Positions 1 through 15,233 of a stretch of 15,233 nucleotides of DNA are shown here, piece by piece. Source of the DNA: a virus; the IMG/VR virus record IMGVR_UViG_3300045988_162231, positions 1-15,233 of that record; one strand, 5' to 3'. The translations under genes and the position numbers were made by a program. How positions within the stretch are numbered: position 1 is the stretch's first letter; every line of letters starts with the position of its first letter. Under the pieces are notes generated by a model that worked only from the letters and a program-made list of their open reading frames with translations, searched no databases and was not told the DNA's origin.

Positions 1-327
1 AAGAGTTCATTATATAAACTTTTTATGTTCCCCAATTATGTAAACCGAACAAACATACGCAAACCTGCAACCTTAGAGCCGTAACGGTTACAAGGCTTAC
101 AATAACTGGAAATAACTCAAGTTAACATAATATTATTATTATTTTACAAAAAGCCTAAAAGCCTAGAGCCCCAAGGGATAGAGCGAGTTAACAAAATACA
201 AATAAGAAGTTTACATAAAACTATATTATGTAAACTAAAGTATATTATGTAAAGCCAATGTATTACATTTGTAATATTTATTTTTACTCTTTTTATTGAC
301 TTTTATCATTTTTTGTTATAATATAGG
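1..327. repeat. Left inverted terminal repeat (327 bp) of a linear genome; presumed protein-primed replication origin
   Basis: 1-327 is the exact reverse complement of 14907-15233, compared block by block. Identity stops at 328 (tat versus aaa). The window begins and ends exactly at the repeat. It contains arrays of short direct and inverted repeats and a promoter. Confidence 0.95.
296..322 (+). promoter_or_regulatory. ITR-embedded early promoter, left arm (extended -10)
   Basis: Perfect extended -10 TGtTATAAT (314-322). TTGACT lies at 296-301, but the spacer is only 15 nt, which is suboptimal. The predicted transcription start at about 328-330 coincides with the ITR boundary. No other promoter-like sequence precedes the first + strand gene at 399. 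Confidence 0.55.
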
Positions 328-398: not shown

Positions 399-812
399 AT
401 GGCTAATAAGTATGAGGTAAAAGTTAACGAAAAAAAAGGAAGTTGCGATAATGCACTTTTTGAAAAAATGGCAATGAAAGGTGATATTACTGCAACAAAA
501 CTATCTGAAGTATTAGGACAAGTAGTACATATTGTAGGATATGCAAGTTGTACTATTACAACAGAAGATAAGACTTTTGATATTAATTATTTTGATACAG
601 AAGAATTTGGACTAATAAGTTCTGGTAGCGAAATATTTTATGAAAGTGTAAAGGACTATTTTGAAAAAGTAGAAGAAGTAAGACTTACAGAAGTAAAAAC
701 TAAAAAAGGTAAGACATATAAAGCCGTTCCAATTTTAGATAAGAAAACAACAAACAAAGAAGAAACTACAAAGAAGGAAGAAGAAACAACAAACGACGAA
801 TTATCTTTTTAA
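399..812 (+). CDS. Putative single-stranded DNA-binding protein (phi29 p5-like), 137 aa
   Basis: ATG at 399 follows GAAGGGAAG (382-390). It is the first gene after the ITR promoter and lies directly upstream of the terminal-protein and polymerase genes. A compact core is followed by a K/E/T-rich tail ending NDELSF, resembling the acidic-aromatic C-terminal tip of bacterial SSBs. There is loose by-eye similarity to the recalled phi29 p5 (INYFDTEEFGLISSGSEIFYESV.. versus TTIFAADGSLYSAISKTVAEA..). Confidence 0.5.
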   Translation: MANKYEVKVNEKKGSCDNALFEKMAMKGDITATKLSEVLGQVVHIVGYASCTITTEDKTFDINYFDTEEFGLISSGSEIFYESVKDYFEKVEEVRLTEVKTKKGKTYKAVPILDKKTTNKEETTKKEEETTNDELSF

Positions 813-833
813 TTTGTAGGGAGTTGACAGTAA

Positions 834-1403
834 ATGGCTAATAAAAAAATTCCAATGACACATGCAAAGGTGTCATTGTTTAATGAAATGAAGAAGTTAG
901 CAAAAAGAGCTAATCAACGTATGTTAAGACTAGAACGACTTACTGGAATGACTGGCTCATTTGCTACTAAACAATTATATGACTATTTAGATAATGGAGT
1001 ATTACAAGCTATTACACCAAAGGGTAGAGTAGCTGTTAAAAAATCTTATTCTATAGATGAAATGAATTCAATTATAAAAGCCTTAAAAGATTTTATGAAT
1101 GATGTATCTACTACCCCTCAAGTAAGAAAATTAGTAAAAGAATATTCGGAACGTATAGGAAAGCCTATTGATATTGAAAGAGCTAATACAATATATCAAA
1201 TTGATACTAATTATAAATGGATATATGAATATTACGAGAGTGATTTTTGGGATATTGCAAGAGAAAGTGTTGTTGAAAATTGGTCGCTTGACGACTGGTT
1301 GGATAAAATACCAGCTAATGCAAGTAAAGAAATGGTAGTTGATGAAGAAATGAGATTAAAGCTTGAAAATTTATATACTTATACGAGGGATACAAAAATT
1401 TGA
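834..1403 (+). CDS. Putative terminal protein (replication primer), 189 aa
   Basis: It lies immediately upstream of the protein-primed polymerase and is translationally coupled to it, as in phi29 genes 3 and 2. The N-terminus is basic (KKLAKRANQRMLRLERL), like the phi29 TP N-terminal DNA-binding region. The C-terminal half is acidic and aromatic. GGGAG (819-823) sits 10 nt before the ATG. The call rests on position and composition only. Confidence 0.5.
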   Translation: MANKKIPMTHAKVSLFNEMKKLAKRANQRMLRLERLTGMTGSFATKQLYDYLDNGVLQAITPKGRVAVKKSYSIDEMNSIIKALKDFMNDVSTTPQVRKLVKEYSERIGKPIDIERANTIYQIDTNYKWIYEYYESDFWDIARESVVENWSLDDWLDKIPANASKEMVVDEEMRLKLENLYTYTRDTKI

Positions 1404-3514
1404 TACATTGGTTAGAATATGAAGGACACATACCAAAAATCAAAGGAAAACGTAATAGGTTTGATAATACAATATATACATTTGATATAGAAACTACTTC
1501 TTATATTATACTAAATGGTAAACAAATGAATACTAAAAAATATTTGAAGTTATCTGATAAAGAAAAAGAACAATGCAAATTTTATGCTTGTATGTATATT
1601 TGGCAATTCGGAATAGACGATAAAGTTTATTATGGAAGAACTTGGGAAGAATTATATCATTTTTTAGAACGTATTGAATGGTTTGCTACAGATGTTAAAA
1701 AATATGTATTTGTACATAATTTAGGTTTTGAATTTCAGTTTTTAAGAAATTATTTTACTTTTTCTGATGTATTTGCAAGAAAAAGTCATAAAGTAATTAA
1801 AGCTACTATGAATGAATTTAATTTTGAATTTAGGTGTAGTTTATTTATGACGAATTTGCAACTTAAAAAACTACCAGATGTTTATAATTTACCAGTAGAA
1901 AAATTAGTAGGTGATTTAGATTACAATAAAATTAGACATTATGAAACAAAATTATCTGATGAAGAATTACATTATTGTGAGAATGACTGTCTGGTTGTAT
2001 ACGAATATATTAAAAAAGAGCTTGAGCAATACGAAACAGTAAAAAATATTCCTTTAACATCAACTGGACACGTAAGACGAGAACTTAAAGATACAGTTCG
2101 AACAAACTATCCATATAGAAATAAAGTTAGAAAAAGTATAAATACTGATGGACATATTTATAATTTACTTATTAAGGCATTTGCTGGGGGTTATACGCAC
2201 GCAAATTGGTTATATACAAATGAGATAGTAAAAGACATTACAAGTTTTGATTTTACGAGTTCTTATCCTTACGTAATGGTAACACATAAGTTCCCAAGTC
2301 GAACTTTTAGAAAATGCAATATAAAAAATAGAAGTCAAATGTTAAAATCTATGGCATATTTATTAGTAGTACGTTTTACAGATATAAGTTGTAAGTATTT
2401 CAATAATTTTATTAGTCAAAATAAATGTACAAAAATTAGGGGCGCTAAATTTGATAATGGTAGAATTATTGGAGCAAAAGAAATAGAAATCGTACTAACT
2501 GATGTTGATTTTTATTTTATTTTAGCTACTTATAGTTGTGAATACGAAATTCTAGAAAGTTATTATTCTAAATATGATTATTTGCCAAAAGATTATATTA
2601 ATTTTATTTTAGATAAATATGTTACTAAAACAAAGTATAAAGGAATTGAAGAAAAAAAGCTAGAATATAATTTAGAAAAAGCAAAATTTAATAGCTTATA
2701 TGGTATGACAGTTACTAATAATATTAAAGATATAGTAGTTTTTGATAATGAGGTTGGCTGGTCAGAATTAAAAATGACAAATGATGAAATAATATCAAAA
2801 TTAGAAAAAGAAAAAAAGGACGGCTTTTTGTCTTTTAGTTATGGTGTTTGGGTTACTGCTTGGGCTAGATATAATCTATTAACTAACGTAATAAAACAAG
2901 ATAAGTTCTGTGTTTATTGTGATACTGATAGTATGAAACTAAAAAAAGGTTTTGACATAAGCTATATAGACGAATATAACAAAAAAGTAATAGAAAAAAT
3001 AAAAGTAGCAAGTAAAGAATTAGAAATAGACATAGACAAATTTAAACCAAAAGATAGTAAAGGAAAAGAACATATTATAGGCTTATTTGATTTTGACGGA
3101 CACTATGAAGAATTTATAACACAAGGGGCTAAAAAATACGCATATACAAAATATATAGATAAATCTAAAATTAATGATAGTATGAACGTATTAAAAGTAA
3201 AAGATGATACGGCATTAATACTTGAAATAACGGTCGCTGGAGTTCCAAAACAAGGGGCTAAAGCACTTAAAAGTTTAAAAGATTTTAAAGACGATTTTGT
3301 ATTTGATTTTAAGTATACAAATAAAAATTTACTTATATATAATGATGAAATGAAACCGTTTGAGCTAACTGATTATAAAGGAAAAACAAGAACAGTTACA
3401 GATAAATATAGTTGTGTTTTAATTCCTACGACTTATGTGTTAGGAAAATCTGAGGAATACGCAAATTTACTTTCAGATGAAAGTTCAGCAAGAGCAATAT
3501 ATAATGAGGAGTGA
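1400..3514 (+). CDS. Protein-primed family-B DNA polymerase, 704 aa
   Basis: Motifs read directly from the translation: ExoI FDIETTS, ExoII HNLGFEFQFL, ExoIII YCENDCLVVYEY, motif A DFTSSYPYVM, motif B KAKFNSLYGM, motif C YCDTDSMKL, KxY GAKKYAY. These parallel the phi29 polymerase motifs. The only in-frame start upstream of ExoI is TTG at 1400, with GAGGGA at 1385-1390. This start overlaps the upstream stop codon (ATTTGA). Confidence 0.95.
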   Translation: MIHWLEYEGHIPKIKGKRNRFDNTIYTFDIETTSYIILNGKQMNTKKYLKLSDKEKEQCKFYACMYIWQFGIDDKVYYGRTWEELYHFLERIEWFATDVKKYVFVHNLGFEFQFLRNYFTFSDVFARKSHKVIKATMNEFNFEFRCSLFMTNLQLKKLPDVYNLPVEKLVGDLDYNKIRHYETKLSDEELHYCENDCLVVYEYIKKELEQYETVKNIPLTSTGHVRRELKDTVRTNYPYRNKVRKSINTDGHIYNLLIKAFAGGYTHANWLYTNEIVKDITSFDFTSSYPYVMVTHKFPSRTFRKCNIKNRSQMLKSMAYLLVVRFTDISCKYFNNFISQNKCTKIRGAKFDNGRIIGAKEIEIVLTDVDFYFILATYSCEYEILESYYSKYDYLPKDYINFILDKYVTKTKYKGIEEKKLEYNLEKAKFNSLYGMTVTNNIKDIVVFDNEVGWSELKMTNDEIISKLEKEKKDGFLSFSYGVWVTAWARYNLLTNVIKQDKFCVYCDTDSMKLKKGFDISYIDEYNKKVIEKIKVASKELEIDIDKFKPKDSKGKEHIIGLFDFDGHYEEFITQGAKKYAYTKYIDKSKINDSMNVLKVKDDTALILEITVAGVPKQGAKALKSLKDFKDDFVFDFKYTNKNLLIYNDEMKPFELTDYKGKTRTVTDKYSCVLIPTTYVLGKSEEYANLLSDESSARAIYNEE

Positions 3515-3520
3515 TGAGAT

Positions 3521-3715
3521 ATGAGTAAGCAAAAAGATTTACAATTTATACAAGGTTTTAGTAAAATATCTATAACTAGTATATGCGAAAAAAATAATAT
3601 ATGTAAACAAAATATTTTTTCTGGAACTGCGTCCGAAAAAAATTTAGCAAAAGTAAAAGAAGAAGTACAAAAAGAATTTGCTAAATTGTATTTACAAGGT
3701 GATGACAATGAGTAG
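3521..3715 (+). CDS. Hypothetical 64-aa protein, possibly a small helix-turn-helix DNA binder
   Basis: ATG at 3521 lies 9 nt after GAGGAG (3506-3511). The ORF is tightly packed between the polymerase and ATPase genes. The segment ISITSICEKNNICKQNIFSG has an HTH-like pattern, but I recognise no family. Confidence 0.55.
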   Translation: MSKQKDLQFIQGFSKISITSICEKNNICKQNIFSGTASEKNLAKVKEEVQKEFAKLYLQGDDNE

Positions 3716-4787
3716 AACACAAATACATTATAATTTGGATAAAATTGATAATTTAAATGCCAATTATAATTTGATATATGGTGAAAAATCTAACGGAAAA
3801 AGTTATCAAGTTAAGCACAAAAAAGGTATTGAAAAATACTTAAAAACGGGTAGAAGGTTCATCTTAATGAGACGTTGGGAAAGTGACTTAACTTCGGCTT
3901 GGATAGAAAGTTATTTTTCGGACGTAGATATACAAAAGCTAACTAACAATAAATATAATTGTGTAACTAAATTTAGAAATGAATTATATCTAACTACAAT
4001 GACAGAAGATTACAAGAAAAAAAGAGGAGAAAAAATAGGATATGCAATACCTATTTCACTTGAACAACGTTATTCTGGAGCAAGTTTTTTAGATGTAGAC
4101 GATATAATTGTCGAAGAGTTTATGAGTAGAGGTATTTATATTGTAAATGAGCCAAGCAAATTAATGACATTTTATAGTACAGTTGACAGAAAAAGAGGAA
4201 CTACTAAACTTTGGCTTGTAGGTAATACTGTAAGTAGAGTATGTCCGTATCTTAAAGAATGGGGTTTATATGATATAATGAAAAATCAAAAACAAGGTGA
4301 TATAAACACTACTATTATACATAATGAAGAAAATGACGTAAAAATTGCTGTAGAATATTGTAGGTCATCTGGTGGTAAAACAATGGCTATAGGACAAGCA
4401 AAAAATATGATAGACAAAGGCGAATGGCAAACAGACATACAACCAAAACTTCCAAAAAGTTATAAGGCTTATGATATATTATTTAGGTTTGGTTTTCAGT
4501 ATCAAAGTTTTAAATTTATATGTGAGTATTTAGTAGACAAGCAAGAAAAGAAATATCCTTGTTGGTTTATATATCCATACAATAAAAATTTTGAGGATAA
4601 CTTTATTGTTTTTTCTGATGAAATAAAATTAAGTCCTTATTGGCAACGTGATATATATAATATAACAATAAAAAACGAAAAACTTAAACATTTATTTCAA
4701 AGTTTTAGGGAAGATAAAATTTTTTTCAGTTCTGATATGTGTGGTACGGACTTTAAACAAGTAATTGATTTTAATATTAAGAGGTGA
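3708..4787 (+). CDS. DNA encapsidation (packaging) ATPase, phi29 gp16-like, 359 aa
   Basis: Walker A is GEKSNGKSY and the Walker B-like motif is DDIIVEEF. By-eye alignment to the recalled phi29 gp16 gives IGARGIGKSY/FIYVRRY/GWAIPLS versus YGEKSNGKSY/FILMRRW/GYAIPIS. I moved the start from the track position 3678 to ATG 3708, which has AAGGTGA at 3696-3702 and a 5-nt spacer. This start overlaps the upstream ORF by 8 nt. Confidence 0.9.
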   Translation: MSRTQIHYNLDKIDNLNANYNLIYGEKSNGKSYQVKHKKGIEKYLKTGRRFILMRRWESDLTSAWIESYFSDVDIQKLTNNKYNCVTKFRNELYLTTMTEDYKKKRGEKIGYAIPISLEQRYSGASFLDVDDIIVEEFMSRGIYIVNEPSKLMTFYSTVDRKRGTTKLWLVGNTVSRVCPYLKEWGLYDIMKNQKQGDINTTIIHNEENDVKIAVEYCRSSGGKTMAIGQAKNMIDKGEWQTDIQPKLPKSYKAYDILFRFGFQYQSFKFICEYLVDKQEKKYPCWFIYPYNKNFEDNFIVFSDEIKLSPYWQRDIYNITIKNEKLKHLFQSFREDKIFFSSDMCGTDFKQVIDFNIKR

Positions 4788-4793
4788 TAAACT

Positions 4794-4922
4794 ATGCTTG
4801 AATATTTACAAGAATTATTACAAGATATACAAAATATCGATATTAAAGAACAAAAGCAAAAATCTTTTGCATTGGAAACTGCTATTGATATTTTATTAAA
4901 ATTAAGAAATGAGAAAGGGTGA
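4794..4922 (+). CDS. Hypothetical 42-aa helical protein (not in the ORF track)
   Basis: ATG at 4794 follows AGAGGTGATAA (4780-4790). Translation: MLEYLQELLQDIQNIDIKEQKQKSFALETAIDILLKLRNEKG. Its TGA stop (4920-4922) is embedded in the Shine-Dalgarno sequence of the next gene. It exactly fills the gap between two confident genes. Confidence 0.5.
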   Translation: MLEYLQELLQDIQNIDIKEQKQKSFALETAIDILLKLRNEKG

Positions 4923-4927
4923 TAAAA

Positions 4928-6595
4928 ATGGCAACATTACATAGTGAAATAATTTTATGTAGAAATATTAAACTTGATAAAAATTATATAAATGTATTAA
5001 GCTATTCAACTAATCAAATGCTTGATTTATGTAAACGTAATGCAATAGCAACCGCTAGTGACTATTCTTTTATTAGACAACATAATAATAATATATTTAC
5101 TGGTTTTACATACGAACAATGCTTACAAGCCAATTATATAGCTTTTCAAAATAAAGATTATAGTAACAAATGGTTTTTTGCATTTATTGATGAAGTAAAT
5201 TATTCAGGTGAAAGTAACACAGAAATTCGTTATACTATTGACGCTTGGTCTACATTTTTTGATGATTGGCAAAAACAACCTTGTTATATAACAAGACAAC
5301 ACGTAAACGATGATACAATAGGTGCAAATTTAATAGACGAAAATTTAAACGTTGGGGAAGTTGAGGCAATAAACGTAGTAAAAGACGACAGTTTAGACAA
5401 TACATATGGTTATTATATAATTGTAGGTTCTACTTGGGATATAGGGGATAATAACAACCCATCTAAACAAGTAGTAGGTTCTAGTCTATATAATGGTTTA
5501 ATATCTGCTGAAAAACTTTTTGTTATTTCTGGGGCATTTGGTGATAGTATTGTAGACGCTGTTAAAAATTTACAACTATTTCTTTTTCAATCTGCTGAGG
5601 ACGGACACTTAGCCGACGTAAGAAACGTATATATAGTACCTAATTTTTGTATAAGTCCAGCCGACTTACAATTACACGAAAAAACTACAGGAGAATATAC
5701 TTGTACATATTATACTTTAAATACTGGAGTAGATATACCTAGTGCAAAATTACAAGCAACTTGTACTACAAATTATAGAGGATATAAGCCAAAAAATAAT
5801 AAATGTTTTATTTATCCATATCATTATCTATTTGTTACTAACAATAATGGTAATAATAATATATACAAATATGAAAATTTTTCAAACTTTTTTAGTCCAG
5901 AATTTCAAATAAATTTGATAATGATGCCTGGGTGTTCTGGTAGAGTAATTCCACAAAATTATAAAGGTGTATCGGATAACGTTGACGAGAGCTTACCACT
6001 TGCAAAATATCCAATATGTGAATGGAATTGCGACGCATATATTATTTGGCTATCTGCTAATGCTGTAAATATTCCTACTCAAATTATGGGAGTTACTAAT
6101 AATTTAAGTGGTCAAGTTCAAAATGGTAATTTTTCTATAACTCCAGGAGCAAATGGTGGTATAGGTTCAACTGCTGGTTCTACAGCAAGTAATATTATAA
6201 ATGTTGCTGGAAATATTGCAAATATAATAGGACAATTTTATTCTGCGTCTTTACTTCCTAGTATTCAAGGTGGTAACAATACTGGTGATGTAAATTTTGT
6301 AAGTAATGCAAATAATATATTGATATATGAATATAAAGTAAAAGACCAATATTTAAAAGTTATTGACGAATATTTTACAAGATTTGGTTATAGAATAAAT
6401 GAAGTTACTATGCCAAATATTATAGGTAGACGTAATTGGAATTATATAGAAATACCAAGTTCCGAAAGTATTGGTTATGGAACAGTTCCTTCGCAATATA
6501 TGGAACAAATTAATAATGCTTGTCGTAAAGGTGTAACTATTTGGCATAATCACGATAATTTAGGAAATTTTAATTTGGATAATTCTATAGTATAA
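4928..6595 (+). CDS. Tail knob / distal tail tube protein, phi29 gp9-like, 555 aa
   Basis: By-eye alignment to the recalled phi29 gp9: ANYIAFQNKDYSNKWFFAFIDEV versus ASYIMFQNADYGNKWFYAFVTEL. The C-terminus gives FTRFGYRINEV..NYIE...GVTIWHNHDNLGNF versus FHKYGYKINRV..NYVQ...GITLWHTDNIGNY. There is a Gly/Ala/Ser/Ile-rich internal loop. I moved the start from the track GTG at 4919 to ATG 4928 (GAAAGGGTGA at 4913-4922). Confidence 0.9.
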   Translation: MATLHSEIILCRNIKLDKNYINVLSYSTNQMLDLCKRNAIATASDYSFIRQHNNNIFTGFTYEQCLQANYIAFQNKDYSNKWFFAFIDEVNYSGESNTEIRYTIDAWSTFFDDWQKQPCYITRQHVNDDTIGANLIDENLNVGEVEAINVVKDDSLDNTYGYYIIVGSTWDIGDNNNPSKQVVGSSLYNGLISAEKLFVISGAFGDSIVDAVKNLQLFLFQSAEDGHLADVRNVYIVPNFCISPADLQLHEKTTGEYTCTYYTLNTGVDIPSAKLQATCTTNYRGYKPKNNKCFIYPYHYLFVTNNNGNNNIYKYENFSNFFSPEFQINLIMMPGCSGRVIPQNYKGVSDNVDESLPLAKYPICEWNCDAYIIWLSANAVNIPTQIMGVTNNLSGQVQNGNFSITPGANGGIGSTAGSTASNIINVAGNIANIIGQFYSASLLPSIQGGNNTGDVNFVSNANNILIYEYKVKDQYLKVIDEYFTRFGYRINEVTMPNIIGRRNWNYIEIPSSESIGYGTVPSQYMEQINNACRKGVTIWHNHDNLGNFNLDNSIV

Positions 6596-13678: not shown

Positions 13679-13770
13679 TTTATCACCTCTTTACAAAAAT
13701 TAATATATATGATATATTTGTTTCGACCAATTTCCATTTGTTGGTCTCCTTAAATTTTATTATATATAAC

Positions 13771-13800
13771 AAAAAAATACAAGGGTTTACCTTGTATTTT
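13771..13800 (-). terminator. Intrinsic terminator ending the right-arm early cluster
   Basis: On the - strand, immediately after the TAA at 13803-13801: AAAAUACAAGG (13800-13790), loop UAAAC, CCUUGUAUUUU (13784-13774), then UUU. Confidence 0.7.
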
Positions 13801-14043
13801 TTATTTTAGTAAAGTTTTTATTAAATCATTTATACTCTTTTTATGACTATCAATTACTTGGTCATCTAAGTTATTTTCTTTAATAACTTTAGCTAAGATA
13901 GATAATACTATATCAACATCAACTATATGTTCTTTCACTAAAGAATCAATTATTGTTCCAAATTCATTAATAATACTTTTTCTATTTCCTGTAATTTCAC
14001 AAACTGTACATTTTTTATTTTCATTCCATTTTGCTCTAATCAT
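13801..14043 (-). CDS. Hypothetical early protein, 80 aa
   Basis: ATG at 14043 overlaps the upstream stop by 1 nt (TAATG), with AAGGGGT 8 nt upstream. I recognise no family. Confidence 0.6.
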   Translation of the reverse strand: MIRAKWNENKKCTVCEITGNRKSIINEFGTIIDSLVKEHIVDVDIVLSILAKVIKENNLDDQVIDSHKKSINDLIKTLLK

Positions 14044-14348
14044 TATATATCATACCCCTTTTCTTTTAATATTTTAGATAATGCTTTAAATTTTAATTTT
14101 ACTATATCAGGTATTGGCTGAGAATTTAATATTTCATTATATCCGTCCATTAATTTATCATATATATTTTTTTCAATTTGTATATAATTAGATATTAAAT
14201 CATATAAATTATTTATAATTTCATCTGACATTTGAGGGATTCTTTCCTTAAACCCTGTACTTTCTATCATTAAATTTCTTTTTTCTAATACTTTTATTAT
14301 TTTTTCTTCTTTCTCAGTTCTATTCAATTTTGCTTTTTTATCTTCCAT
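14043..14348 (-). CDS. Hypothetical early protein, 101 aa, helical
   Basis: I moved the start from the track GTG at 14357 to ATG 14348 (GAAGGGTGA plus a 5-nt spacer, the same Shine-Dalgarno geometry as other genes here). I recognise no family. Confidence 0.6.
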   Translation of the reverse strand: MEDKKAKLNRTEKEEKIIKVLEKRNLMIESTGFKERIPQMSDEIINNLYDLISNYIQIEKNIYDKLMDGYNEILNSQPIPDIVKLKFKALSKILKEKGYDI

Positions 14349-14353
14349 ATTTT

Positions 14354-14668
14354 TCACCCTTCTATATAATATAAGTTTAAAAATGATTTGTTTGTTATTT
14401 TACCATTAAAATTGTATTCTTTTTGTATATTTTCTTTTGCTGGCTTTAATGCTGTTGTCATCATATTTTCAATGTTCCTTGGACTTACAAAATATAATTC
14501 GGCAAGTTCTTTATAAAGGTCTTTTATAGTATATTTTGGTAGCATTGTTTTACCTTTTGTATATAGCATTAAGGCTGTATTCCAGATTATAAAACCTTTG
14601 CTATTAATATTAAAACCTAAGTTCTTTAAATAATCTGTATTTTCTAAATACTCTTTTGTTTTGCTCAA
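14354..14668 (-). CDS. Stand-alone Spo0A C-terminal (effector/DNA-binding) domain-like protein, 104 aa
   Basis: By-eye alignment to the recalled B. subtilis Spo0A C-domain: IGVPAHIKGYLYLREAI / [28 protein letters not shown] / KPTNSEFI versus LGFNINSKGFIIWNTAL / TIKDLYKELAELYFVSPRNIENMMTTAL / KITNKSFL. No receiver domain is present. I set the start to TTG 14668 (AAAGGGGTGA plus a 5-nt spacer) rather than the track GTG at 14677, which lies inside the Shine-Dalgarno sequence. Confidence 0.6.
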   Translation of the reverse strand: MSKTKEYLENTDYLKNLGFNINSKGFIIWNTALMLYTKGKTMLPKYTIKDLYKELAELYFVSPRNIENMMTTALKPAKENIQKEYNFNGKITNKSFLNLYYIEG

Positions 14669-14685
14669 TTTTATCACCCCTTTCT

Positions 14686-14714
14686 ATTATATCATATTTT
14701 ACAATACTATACAA
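14686..14714 (-). promoter_or_regulatory. Possible internal promoter with phased direct repeats upstream of the Spo0A_C-like gene
   Basis: On the - strand: TTGTAT (14714-14709), a 17-nt spacer ending in TGa, then TATAAT (14691-14686). It overlaps two GTATTGT repeats spaced 10 bp apart. The predicted start would leave only a ~13-nt leader, so the call is uncertain. Confidence 0.35.
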
Positions 14715-14719
14715 TACAT

Positions 14720-14881
14720 TTACATATATTTATCTATTAAATTATACATTATATATTTATATAAATTAAACTTAAATATCCTATAACTTATTAATTGTAT
14801 TGTCATAAATATAATAAAACCTATTAATAAATAAAATATTATAATTCCTGCATCAAATAATAAAATTGCTAATTTTTCCAT
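14720..14881 (-). CDS. Small membrane peptide, 53 aa (not in the ORF track)
   Basis: ATG at 14881 lies 9 nt after AGGAAAGGGG and is the first ORF after the right ITR promoter. Translation: MEKLAILLFDAGIIIFYLLIGFIIFMTIQLISYRIFKFNLYKYIMYNLIDKYM. It has one clear hydrophobic helix followed by a basic/aromatic tail. An open frame of 53 codons is unusual in DNA this AT-rich. Confidence 0.45.
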   Translation of the reverse strand: MEKLAILLFDAGIIIFYLLIGFIIFMTIQLISYRIFKFNLYKYIMYNLIDKYM

Positions 14882-14906: not shown

Positions 14907-15233
14907 CCTATATTATAACAAAAAATGATAAAAGTCAATAAAAAGAGTAAAAATAAATATTACAAATGTAATACATTGGCTTTACATAATATACTTTAGT
15001 TTACATAATATAGTTTTATGTAAACTTCTTATTTGTATTTTGTTAACTCGCTCTATCCCTTGGGGCTCTAGGCTTTTAGGCTTTTTGTAAAATAATAATA
15101 ATATTATGTTAACTTGAGTTATTTCCAGTTATTGTAAGCCTTGTAACCGTTACGGCTCTAAGGTTGCAGGTTTGCGTATGTTTGTTCGGTTTACATAATT
15201 GGGGAACATAAAAAGTTTATATAATGAACTCTT
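14907..15233. repeat. Right inverted terminal repeat (327 bp)
   Basis: It is the exact reverse complement of 1-327. Confidence 0.95.
14912..14938 (-). promoter_or_regulatory. ITR-embedded early promoter, right arm (mirror copy of 296-322)
   Basis: Its sequence is identical to the left ITR promoter because it lies within the perfect ITR. It faces inward toward the - strand early cluster. The first Shine-Dalgarno sequence and ATG follow within ~30 nt of the ITR boundary. Confidence 0.55.

Follow-up and report, generated by a model that had tools for sequence, protein, structure and literature searches.

Introduction

In bacteriophage phi29, the host's Spo0A represses the phage's early promoters through 0A boxes, six consensus copies of which are sited at promoters and origins (PMC2731898). 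The isolated DNA-binding domain of this sporulation regulator binds its targets without phosphorylation (PMC3485338), and homologues of spo0A truncated to this effector domain have been described in gut phages by Schwartz et al. (2023, mBio; PMC10294663), who found them enriched among phages of spore-formers and suggested that they may act independently of host signals. Here we analyze one such gene, at positions 14354..14668 on the minus strand of IMG/VR virus record IMGVR_UViG_3300045988_162231. This record, which we call the window, is a complete linear phi29-like phage genome of 15,233 bp (27.9% G+C), and the gene encodes a stand-alone Spo0A_C-like helix-turn-helix protein of 104 residues with a TTG start. 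A sequence-only reading had proposed that the product is a Spo0A effector domain without its receiver, and that it either mimics Spo0A on host 0A boxes or serves as the phage's own transcription regulator. Its two premises, phosphorylation-free DNA binding by the Spo0A C-domain and repression of phi29 early promoters by host Spo0A, are borne out by the literature cited above.

The class of receiver-less phage spo0A genes, along with the main idea of a role in sporulation, is already published as a bioinformatic observation, and the window protein is a divergent member of that class. Like the genes of Schwartz et al., it is phage-borne, effector-only and about 100 residues long. Those authors proposed manipulation of host sporulation and did not analyze operators; the clade to which the window belongs differs in departing from the family consensus at the base-reading residues and in having no 0A boxes. 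What our comparisons appear to add is the lineage-wide conservation of the gene, a co-variation between recognition helix and 0A box, and the loss of both in the window clade. We consider the best explanation, at a probability of roughly 0.55, to be that the window protein is a phage early-promoter regulator with changed DNA specificity.

The gene product is a Spo0A effector domain without a receiver

The window protein matches the Pfam Spo0A_C family (PF08769) with an E-value of about 1.4e-7 and a score of 31.9 bits, above the gathering cut-off of 25, in an alignment that spans model positions 3-72 of 104. It also matches PHROG 24603, a group annotated as function unknown (E 1.2e-7). A PDB search with the single window sequence returned only noise, and a family profile was needed to detect the crystal structures of the Spo0A C-domain, which it matched over the full length of the domain (profile 6-103 against chain residues 6-113) with E-values of 1.3e-12 for 1LQ1 and 2.5e-12 for 1FC3. 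The AlphaFold2 (AF2) model of the window protein (pLDDT 96.3, pTM 0.87) contains five helices. In a Foldseek comparison of this model with the PDB, the top seven matches are all Spo0A-C chains (1LQ1 and 1FC3; TM 0.68-0.77, probability 1.00, 98-113 columns) and the next match has E>1, leaving Spo0A-C as the only significant structural relative there. The best structural match in BFVD is A0A8S5NMK9 (TM 0.88-0.92, 32% identity), and the top neighbors of the window model there are gut-virome proteins labeled 'Spo0A C terminal'.

The protein falls outside Spo0A proper: the full-length Spo0A equivalog model TIGR02875 scores 11.6 bits against a cut-off of 200. A receiver domain with its phosphoacceptor aspartate is absent, there being no sequence N-terminal to the effector domain within the 104 residues. 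This architecture is shared by the family. An exhaustive profile search returned 107 proteins, nearly all of them stand-alone and about 90-160 residues long, with no full-length Spo0A among them, and the Spo0A_C model matched 105 of 106 family members. By its hidden Markov model score and its predicted whole-domain fold, the window protein is genuinely homologous to the effector domain of Spo0A and lacks the receiver, as the sequence-only reading had held.

Compared with the Spo0A C-domains of B. subtilis and G. stearothermophilus (1LQ1, 1FC3), the window protein retains the fold over its whole length, the helix-turn-helix, the glutamate at position E213 and a KxTN..F motif near the C-terminus. 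This motif, K-I/L-T-N-K..F/L (KPTNSEF in Spo0A), is strongly conserved across the family, as is a structural core of G25, W29, Y52 and E67 in the window numbering. The differences are also marked: identity is about 19-20%, R214 and R217 are replaced by N and T, the protein is virus-encoded and without a receiver, and its model has one helix fewer because of a five-residue deletion. In the window protein, as in at least 97 of the 101 members of the family, nothing aligns with Spo0A G227-S231, so the sigma-A-activating region (227-240) is not intact, although the aromatic residue at F236 is kept. The window protein is basic, with an isoelectric point (pI) of 9.3.

Two start codons were considered for the gene. 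A longer open reading frame (ORF; 14354..14677 on the minus strand, 107 residues) would begin with GTG, which we consider an unlikely start because the Shine-Dalgarno sequence read from the DNA, GAAAGGGG (14677..14684, minus strand), abuts this GTG and sits 8 nucleotides (nt) upstream of the TTG at 14668; the latter appears the better start. Gene callers on related contigs likewise choose the Met equivalent to the TTG at 14668. Five close homologues, with 67-99% identity, lie on syntenic contigs of ~15 kb, and inside the window clade the ratio of nonsynonymous to synonymous substitution rates (dN/dS) lies within 0.14-0.27 for 9 of the 10 pairs compared. The remaining pair, the window and L021, gives 1.8 and is nearly identical, with very few changes. 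Judged by these ratios, the Spo0A_C-like ORF is a real, constrained gene under purifying selection.

Both recognition-helix arginines are lost in the window clade

We mapped residues onto Spo0A by numbering 1LQ1 from its C-terminus and adding it to the family alignment. The recognition helix then corresponds to window residues 63-85, in which E67, N68 and T71 align with Spo0A E213, R214 and R217. Zhao et al. are said to have reported in 2002, with the 1LQ1 structure, that these three Spo0A residues make base-specific contacts. Arginines are the usual readers of guanine, and Asn and Thr are typical readers of A:T pairs. Across 101 sequences of the wider family, the E213 position is E in 95, the R214 position R in 84 (K in 6) and the R217 position R in 92. 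In the five sequences of the window clade, in contrast, the first position is E (D in L021), the second reads N, N, N, H and S, and the third T, T, T, T and S, so that both arginines are gone. The base-specific contacts of Spo0A fall on G2, C4 and G5 of the consensus box TGTCGAA (PMC3485338). The window protein thus lacks the helix residues that read this box, E213 apart.

0A boxes at early promoters co-vary with the recognition helix

Relatives of the window phage were collected in two ways: through an alignment of the Spo0A_C sub-family (L007, L008-L020) and, independently of the gene, through homologues of the tail knob protein gp9 (L021-L028 and L030, nine genomes). The gene lies in the same place in 8 of the 9 gp9-fetched genomes, the exception being L025, and an hmmsearch with the family profile located it within the early unit at the right end of all the related genomes examined, L025 again excepted. 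These relatives share 48-81% gp9 identity with the window and carry different lysis modules; a sister clade has the same architecture, and its capsid, connector, tail and ATPase proteins are 47-66% identical to those of the window. Taken across these genomes, the synteny indicates that the Spo0A_C-like gene belongs to the ancestral, conserved early core of a large phi29-like podophage lineage with genomes of ~15 kb.

We define canonical recognition helices as VERAMRTA, IERQMRYA or VERPMRYV. All 16 canonical-helix loci with a sequenced promoter region carry a perfect TGTCGAA in non-coding early-promoter DNA, and in 15 of them it begins about 5 nt after the -10 element. The typical layout is TTGACA, 17 nt, the -10 element, 5 nt and TGTCGAA, so that the box covers about +1 to +7; its sequence is invariant, unlike that of the stretch separating it from the -10 element. 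The box lies at the right end in L007, L010-L013, L015, L016, L018, L019, L024 and L026 (VERAMRTA; the L013 contig begins at the box), at the left end in L023, L027 and L030 (VERPMRYV or VERAMRTA), and at both ends in L028 (VERAMRTA, 5 nt after each -10). The exception in spacing is L022, with helix IERQMRYA, which has two left-end boxes that are not at a recognized -10 element. Overlap of a 0A box with an early promoter is also found in phi29, at promoters A2c, A2b and C2 (PMC2731898); there Spo0A comes from the host and the phage has boxes only, whereas here the lineage encodes the protein and the window clade has lost the boxes.

Loci in which both arginines are lost have no perfect box in non-coding early-promoter DNA: this holds for both ends of the window and for L021, L003, L005, L006 and L002, the last of which carries a single TTCGGCA some 50 nt upstream of its -35 element. 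L025, which has neither gene nor helix, has no box at either end. The window as a whole contains 7 copies of the degenerate box TGNCGAA where 2.85 are expected, a count reached by 5 of 200 shuffles, but all seven sites are coding and just one is a perfect TGTCGAA; a whole-genome scan found TGNCGAA in none of the window's inverted terminal repeats (ITRs), promoters or intergenic regions. In nine fully scanned loci of the sister clade (L007, L009, L011-L013, L015, L016, L018 and L019), all other TGNCGAA sites are likewise within ORFs, apart from a single imperfect box in L018, situated where a long reverse-strand ORF is interrupted.

The contrast of 16/16 with 0/7 gives a naive Fisher p of about 4e-6, a hand calculation (1/C(23,7)) that ignores kinship. 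The protein shared by L027 and L028 (P0006) is, at 47% identity, the most window-like among the canonical-helix relatives, and it has both a canonical helix and a box at the homologous ITR promoter, which marks the loss of both in the window clade as derived and coupled. Against the canonical-helix sisters (L027/L028, L024, L026 and L015; 39-47% identity), the window gene occupies the same genomic slot in a phage of the same architecture. The sisters differ in keeping E-R-x-x-R and the promoter box, and many have extra termini (an NHIPRID tail or CxxC...CxxC). The pairing of box and canonical helix is thus found at neither end of the window, nor elsewhere in its clade. We regard this co-variation as suggestive rather than conclusive.

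A proposed early-promoter regulator of changed specificity, and alternatives to it

These comparisons are best explained, in our view, by a phage early-promoter regulator that has changed its DNA specificity. The window protein is a small, basic, five-helix helix-turn-helix (HTH) protein whose activity, if any, would be constitutive, since it has no receiver. Its gene would be transcribed from the ITR promoter and, in the window phage, also from a promoter of its own, and the protein would regulate phage transcription, most likely by repressing or timing early promoters. In canonical relatives, the operator would be the consensus 0A box TGTCGAA, whose position at about +1 of the early promoter predicts repression. 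In the window clade, the guanine-reading arginines have been exchanged for Asn and Thr; together with the disappearance of the box from the homologous promoter, this suggests that the window protein has moved to another target site, probably an AT-rich one. Its binding to DNA, its action as a repressor and the nature of its operator are what we infer from these patterns. Of the two roles offered by the sequence-only reading, that of the phage's own transcription regulator has fared better, with lineage synteny (8/9) and helix/box co-variation in its favor.

The box occurs solely where the phage's own protein is able to read it and is missing where that protein is absent (L025) or has an altered helix (the window clade). 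The simplest model for the lineage is a phage-borne repressor-operator pair. More tentatively, and at somewhat short of even odds, the spo0A gene of this lineage may be, rather than an accessory for hijacking sporulation, a self-contained repressor-operator module captured from Spo0A, whose protein turns off or times the phage's ITR promoters through the 0A box. The window clade would then be its natural re-specification, with Arg replaced by Asn/Thr, the box lost and a new AT-rich operator gained.

The window protein may in this way fill the role held by p4 in phi29, and would then be, as p4 is, a small DNA-binding protein with which a protein-primed podophage controls its own early promoters. 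The likeness is a functional analogy only, with no relationship in sequence or fold: no p4 structure appeared among the Foldseek matches in the PDB, and neither Pfam nor PHROG gave a p4 match.

Several points weigh against this explanation. The independent lineages behind the co-variation are few, about 4-5 canonical ones against 2 (the window clade and L025). E213, R214 and R217 are residues that we take to be base-contacting, an assumption of ours whose support is their near-invariance in the family. The early expression of the gene is likewise deduced from gene layout; for the 'early right operon' of the sequence-only reading, the promoter-to-terminator structure described below holds up, and the timing has this layout as its basis. 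Motif searches and comparison with relatives yielded no convincing operator for the window protein: the most enriched motif, TTATGTAAA, is also found in canonical-helix clades and in the gene-less L025, and a tandem repeat at the gene's own promoter has a single occurrence and is kept in the closest relatives only. Finally, a shift of host could account for the same pattern, if the boxes serve the host's phosphorylated Spo0A, as in phi29, and the box was lost and the helix relaxed together.

A further alternative is that the protein acts as a protein-protein decoy needing no specific DNA, with its retained surfaces contacting RNA polymerase sigma factors or pairing with the Spo0A C-domain, so that host transcription is redirected or poisoned. 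Purifying selection on the gene agrees with this, as does the conservation of the fold and of the C-terminal K-I/L-T-N-K..F/L motif although the DNA-reading residues have changed. We nevertheless consider a decoy unlikely. The protein is still basic, its HTH geometry is predicted with high confidence, and it is without a known partner; moreover, with Asn and Thr being typical A:T readers, changed specificity is a simpler account than lost binding.

About as improbable is the other role offered by the sequence-only reading, also put forward by Schwartz et al. (2023), in which sporulation is hijacked by mimicry and the protein constitutively occupies host 0A boxes. It might thereby block or force Spo0A-dependent decisions, or compete with the host's phosphorylated Spo0A on the phage genome. 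The homology spans the whole Spo0A effector domain, the isolated domain binds DNA unphosphorylated (PMC3485338), phage spo0A homologues are enriched in phages of spore-formers (PMC10294663), and the canonical relatives are expected to read TGTCGAA anywhere, the host chromosome included. But the window clade is without R214 and R217 (N/H/S and T/S in their place) and retains only E213, there is no 0A box, even as TGNCGAA, in the window's regulatory DNA, and practically all members of the phage family have a deletion of G227-S231 in the sigma-A-activating region. The gene is, in addition, a syntenic core gene of its lineage and not a sporadic accessory, and one sister contig (L007) was binned with an 'uncultured Mycoplasmatota' metagenome-assembled genome, which is weak evidence as to the host. 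Host-directed 0A-box mimicry by the window protein is therefore unlikely.

Candidate operators in the window

The motif TTATGTAAA occurs in 9 exact copies against 1.33 expected, a count that none of 200 shuffles reaches, and 8 of the 9 lie in the ITRs. There are four boxes per ITR, at 36-44, 210-218 (minus strand), 226-234 and 245-253 on the left, with mirror copies within 14981-15198 on the right. No other non-coding motif is strongly enriched. TTATGTAAA is kept in relatives while its flanks diverge, and it occurs in all clades of the lineage. One box sits inside a conserved ATTATGTAAACCGAACAAAC near the terminus. We rejected TTATGTAAA as a specific operator of the window protein on account of its distribution among relatives; the ITR repeats named as a possible target by the sequence-only reading are thus real and enriched, yet unlikely to be that operator, and TTATGTAAA more likely serves replication, packaging or another factor. 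That the protein is a replication-origin or genome-end binder, acting on TTATGTAAA boxes or ITR palindromes in protein-primed replication or packaging, is the least probable alternative: although the motif is enriched in the ITRs and conserved, and host Spo0A binds near the phi29 origins (PMC2731898), it is found no less in canonical-helix clades, and also in the gene-less L025, and does not track the protein.

The other target named by the sequence-only reading, the 'GTATTGT repeats' just upstream of the gene, is a 7+3+7 tandem, TATTGTA-TAG-TATTGTA, at 14716-14700. The spacing equals that reported for tandem 0A boxes (PMC2731898). The tandem overlaps the -35 element of the gene's own internal promoter, which makes TATTGTA-N3-TATTGTA a possible auto-operator. 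Its conservation is narrow: L005 and L006 have an identical copy, L003 an altered one, and L001, L002 and L021 none. This proposal stands in part, with position in its favor and conservation against it. A second operator candidate is formed by ATAGG(A/T)...ATAG repeats, which take the place of the box, directly downstream of the -10 element of the ITR promoter, at both ends and are poorly conserved. Enrichment analysis of k-mers in non-coding DNA gave no clade-specific motif.

Three further sites were examined and rejected. Apparent 'relic' 0A boxes in the left 5' leader (TCGA/CGAA, 333-380) prove to be the stems and loop of two predicted RNA hairpins, one of which shows compensatory changes across clades. 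A near-box, GGTCGAA, upstream of the lysin gene (about 13718-13724) is not kept in relatives with the same helix. The palindrome GACCAA...TTGGTC before the lysin gene was considered as an activator site, and its sequence does not track the protein across relatives.

Two of these regions have features of their own. A hairpin, TTGTG-ACCGAA-CACAA, lies at 366-382, just upstream of the ribosome-binding site (RBS) of the first left-end gene; at homologous sites in L021-L028 and L030, 3 of its 4 pairs show compensatory changes across clades, and it may be a leader element for translation or RNA stability. Past the early terminator, at 13706-13745 in minus sense, a hairpin GACCAA-N10-TTGGTC is followed by a conserved ATATATCATATA before the lysin RBS. 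We found no clear -35 element at 13706-13745 ahead of the lysin gene, and the region may be an activator-dependent late promoter or a read-through control point.

Organization of the right-end unit and the genome

The right-end unit is driven by a sigma-A-type early promoter carried in the ITR, TTGACT ... TGTTATAAT (14910..14938, minus strand), an identical copy of which (296-324, plus strand) drives the left-end replication genes. Both have the form TTGACT ... TG-T-TATAAT and lie at the inner edge of their ITR, so that the same promoter would fire inward from both ends. The first gene of the unit encodes a 53-residue hydrophobic protein, probably a membrane protein, that is conserved in relatives (14720..14881, minus strand). 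The 51-nt gap that follows holds the internal sigma-A-type promoter directly upstream of the Spo0A_C-like gene (14686..14716, minus strand), with a -35 element TTGTAT at 14714-14709, a 17-nt spacer, an extended -10 TG at 14694-14693 and TATAAT at 14691-14686.

Downstream of the Spo0A_C-like gene lies a 104-residue ORF of unknown function in a slot that varies among relatives (14043..14357, minus strand). Its start overlaps the Spo0A_C-like stop by 4 nt (GTGA), which suggests that the two genes are translationally coupled. The last gene of the unit, an ORF of 80 residues, is also of unknown function and is conserved in relatives (13801..14043, minus strand). A bidirectional intrinsic terminator with a 13-bp stem and a T-run (13772..13802), kept in relatives and one of two sites found by a terminator search against 0.3 expected, closes the unit before the genes for the GH25 lysin, M23 peptidase, holin and structural proteins.

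The ITRs of the window are perfect and 327 nt long: the right copy (14907..15233) is 100% complementary to positions 1-327. The left ITR (1..327) holds four TTATGTAAA boxes, the palindrome TATTACATTTGTAATA (261-276) and the early promoter, and the right ITR is its inverted copy. They are far longer than the 6-nt ITR of phi29. The G+C-richer interior of the ITR (about 50-200) showed no significant folding relative to shuffled sequence (z -1.5 to -1.7). Between the ITRs, the plus strand from 399 to 6595 encodes two small proteins, a protein-primed PolB, a Gp16-type packaging ATPase and a gp9-type tail knob. The minus strand from 14881 to 6714 encodes four small proteins, the GH25 lysin, M23 peptidase and holin, a scaffold-like protein, a phi29-type major capsid protein (MCP), the connector and tail proteins. 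An Rfam search of the window found no packaging RNA (pRNA) or other Rfam family, despite the phi29 Gp16-type packaging ATPase.

An INPHARED DNA search with the window found no near-identical DNA among GenBank phages. At the protein level, the polymerase and capsid have best identities of 32-37% to gut podophages of Clostridium innocuum, Hungatella and Eggerthella and to astrithr-like phages, and lysin and capsid searches gave only distant matches (about 33-40%) to podophages of gut Clostridium, Hungatella and Eggerthella; a cluster look-up returned no names of environments. Relatives number in the thousands in metagenomes, where their contigs measure ~14-15.7 kb. In the relative L030, positions 1-2570 join a sister-clade phage to bacterial genes for a short-chain dehydrogenase, elongation factor P (EF-P) and a nicotinamide mononucleotide (NMN) transporter; the junction between phage and bacterial DNA either reflects chimeric assembly or hints at the host.

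Variant architectures among relatives

The window gene joins a phage-encoded class by its complete phage genome, its single effector domain and its BFVD match. A tblastn search of INPHARED (GenBank phage records) with the window protein found no relative, nor did a search of IMG/VR with an alignment of the window protein and its closest homologues. Canonical family members searched against curated collections matched unannotated gut 'Bacteriophage sp.' records only, or nothing.

Some family members have elaborated the domain. P0062, P0077 and P0103 (428-454 residues) carry three or four tandem Spo0A_C domains with VERA.RHAIE helices and are receiver-less. A C-terminal peptide, (N/Q/T)HIP(R/S/Y/H)(I/L)D, is present in L007, L011-L013, L015, L019, L024, L026 and L030 and in P0007, P0020, P0030, P0038, P0043, P0052, P0053 and P0082; the window protein is without this peptide, which may be a docking motif for a partner. 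An N-terminal CxxC...CxxC extension, zinc-ribbon-like, occurs in L022:14486-14923(-), L023:13901-14347(-), P0027, P0036 and P0048, and a C-terminal tail, REGE(I/V)(N/D/G)(K/R)WK.L.NGL.Q, is also found on L022, L023, P0027 and P0048.

The gene-less L025 (14,948 bp) encodes in its early right unit a small protein matching the Acb2/Tad1 hairpin family (anti-CBASS/Thoeris sponge), and its left leader contains a tRNA-like element (194-289) with an odd anticodon loop. A metallo-beta-lactamase domain is present in large tail proteins of the sister-clade phages L024 (6629-8512, minus strand) and L025 (6454-8481, minus strand), the latter with a weak match to the anti-Pycsar Apyc1 family.

Implications

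Receiver-less phage spo0A genes have so far been read, by bioinformatics, as tools of host dormancy. The co-variation of helix and box described here makes the function of phage spo0A directly testable. If the boxes serve host Spo0A instead, the spore-entrapment strategy of phi29 would extend to an uncultured lineage, with a phage-encoded competitor in addition. If, on the other hand, these proteins bind their phages' own promoters, a widespread gut-phage label of 'sporulation gene' would become 'phage early regulator derived from Spo0A', and the window clade would show how a Spo0A-type recognition helix changes specificity, providing with its canonical sisters a matched pair of natural variants.

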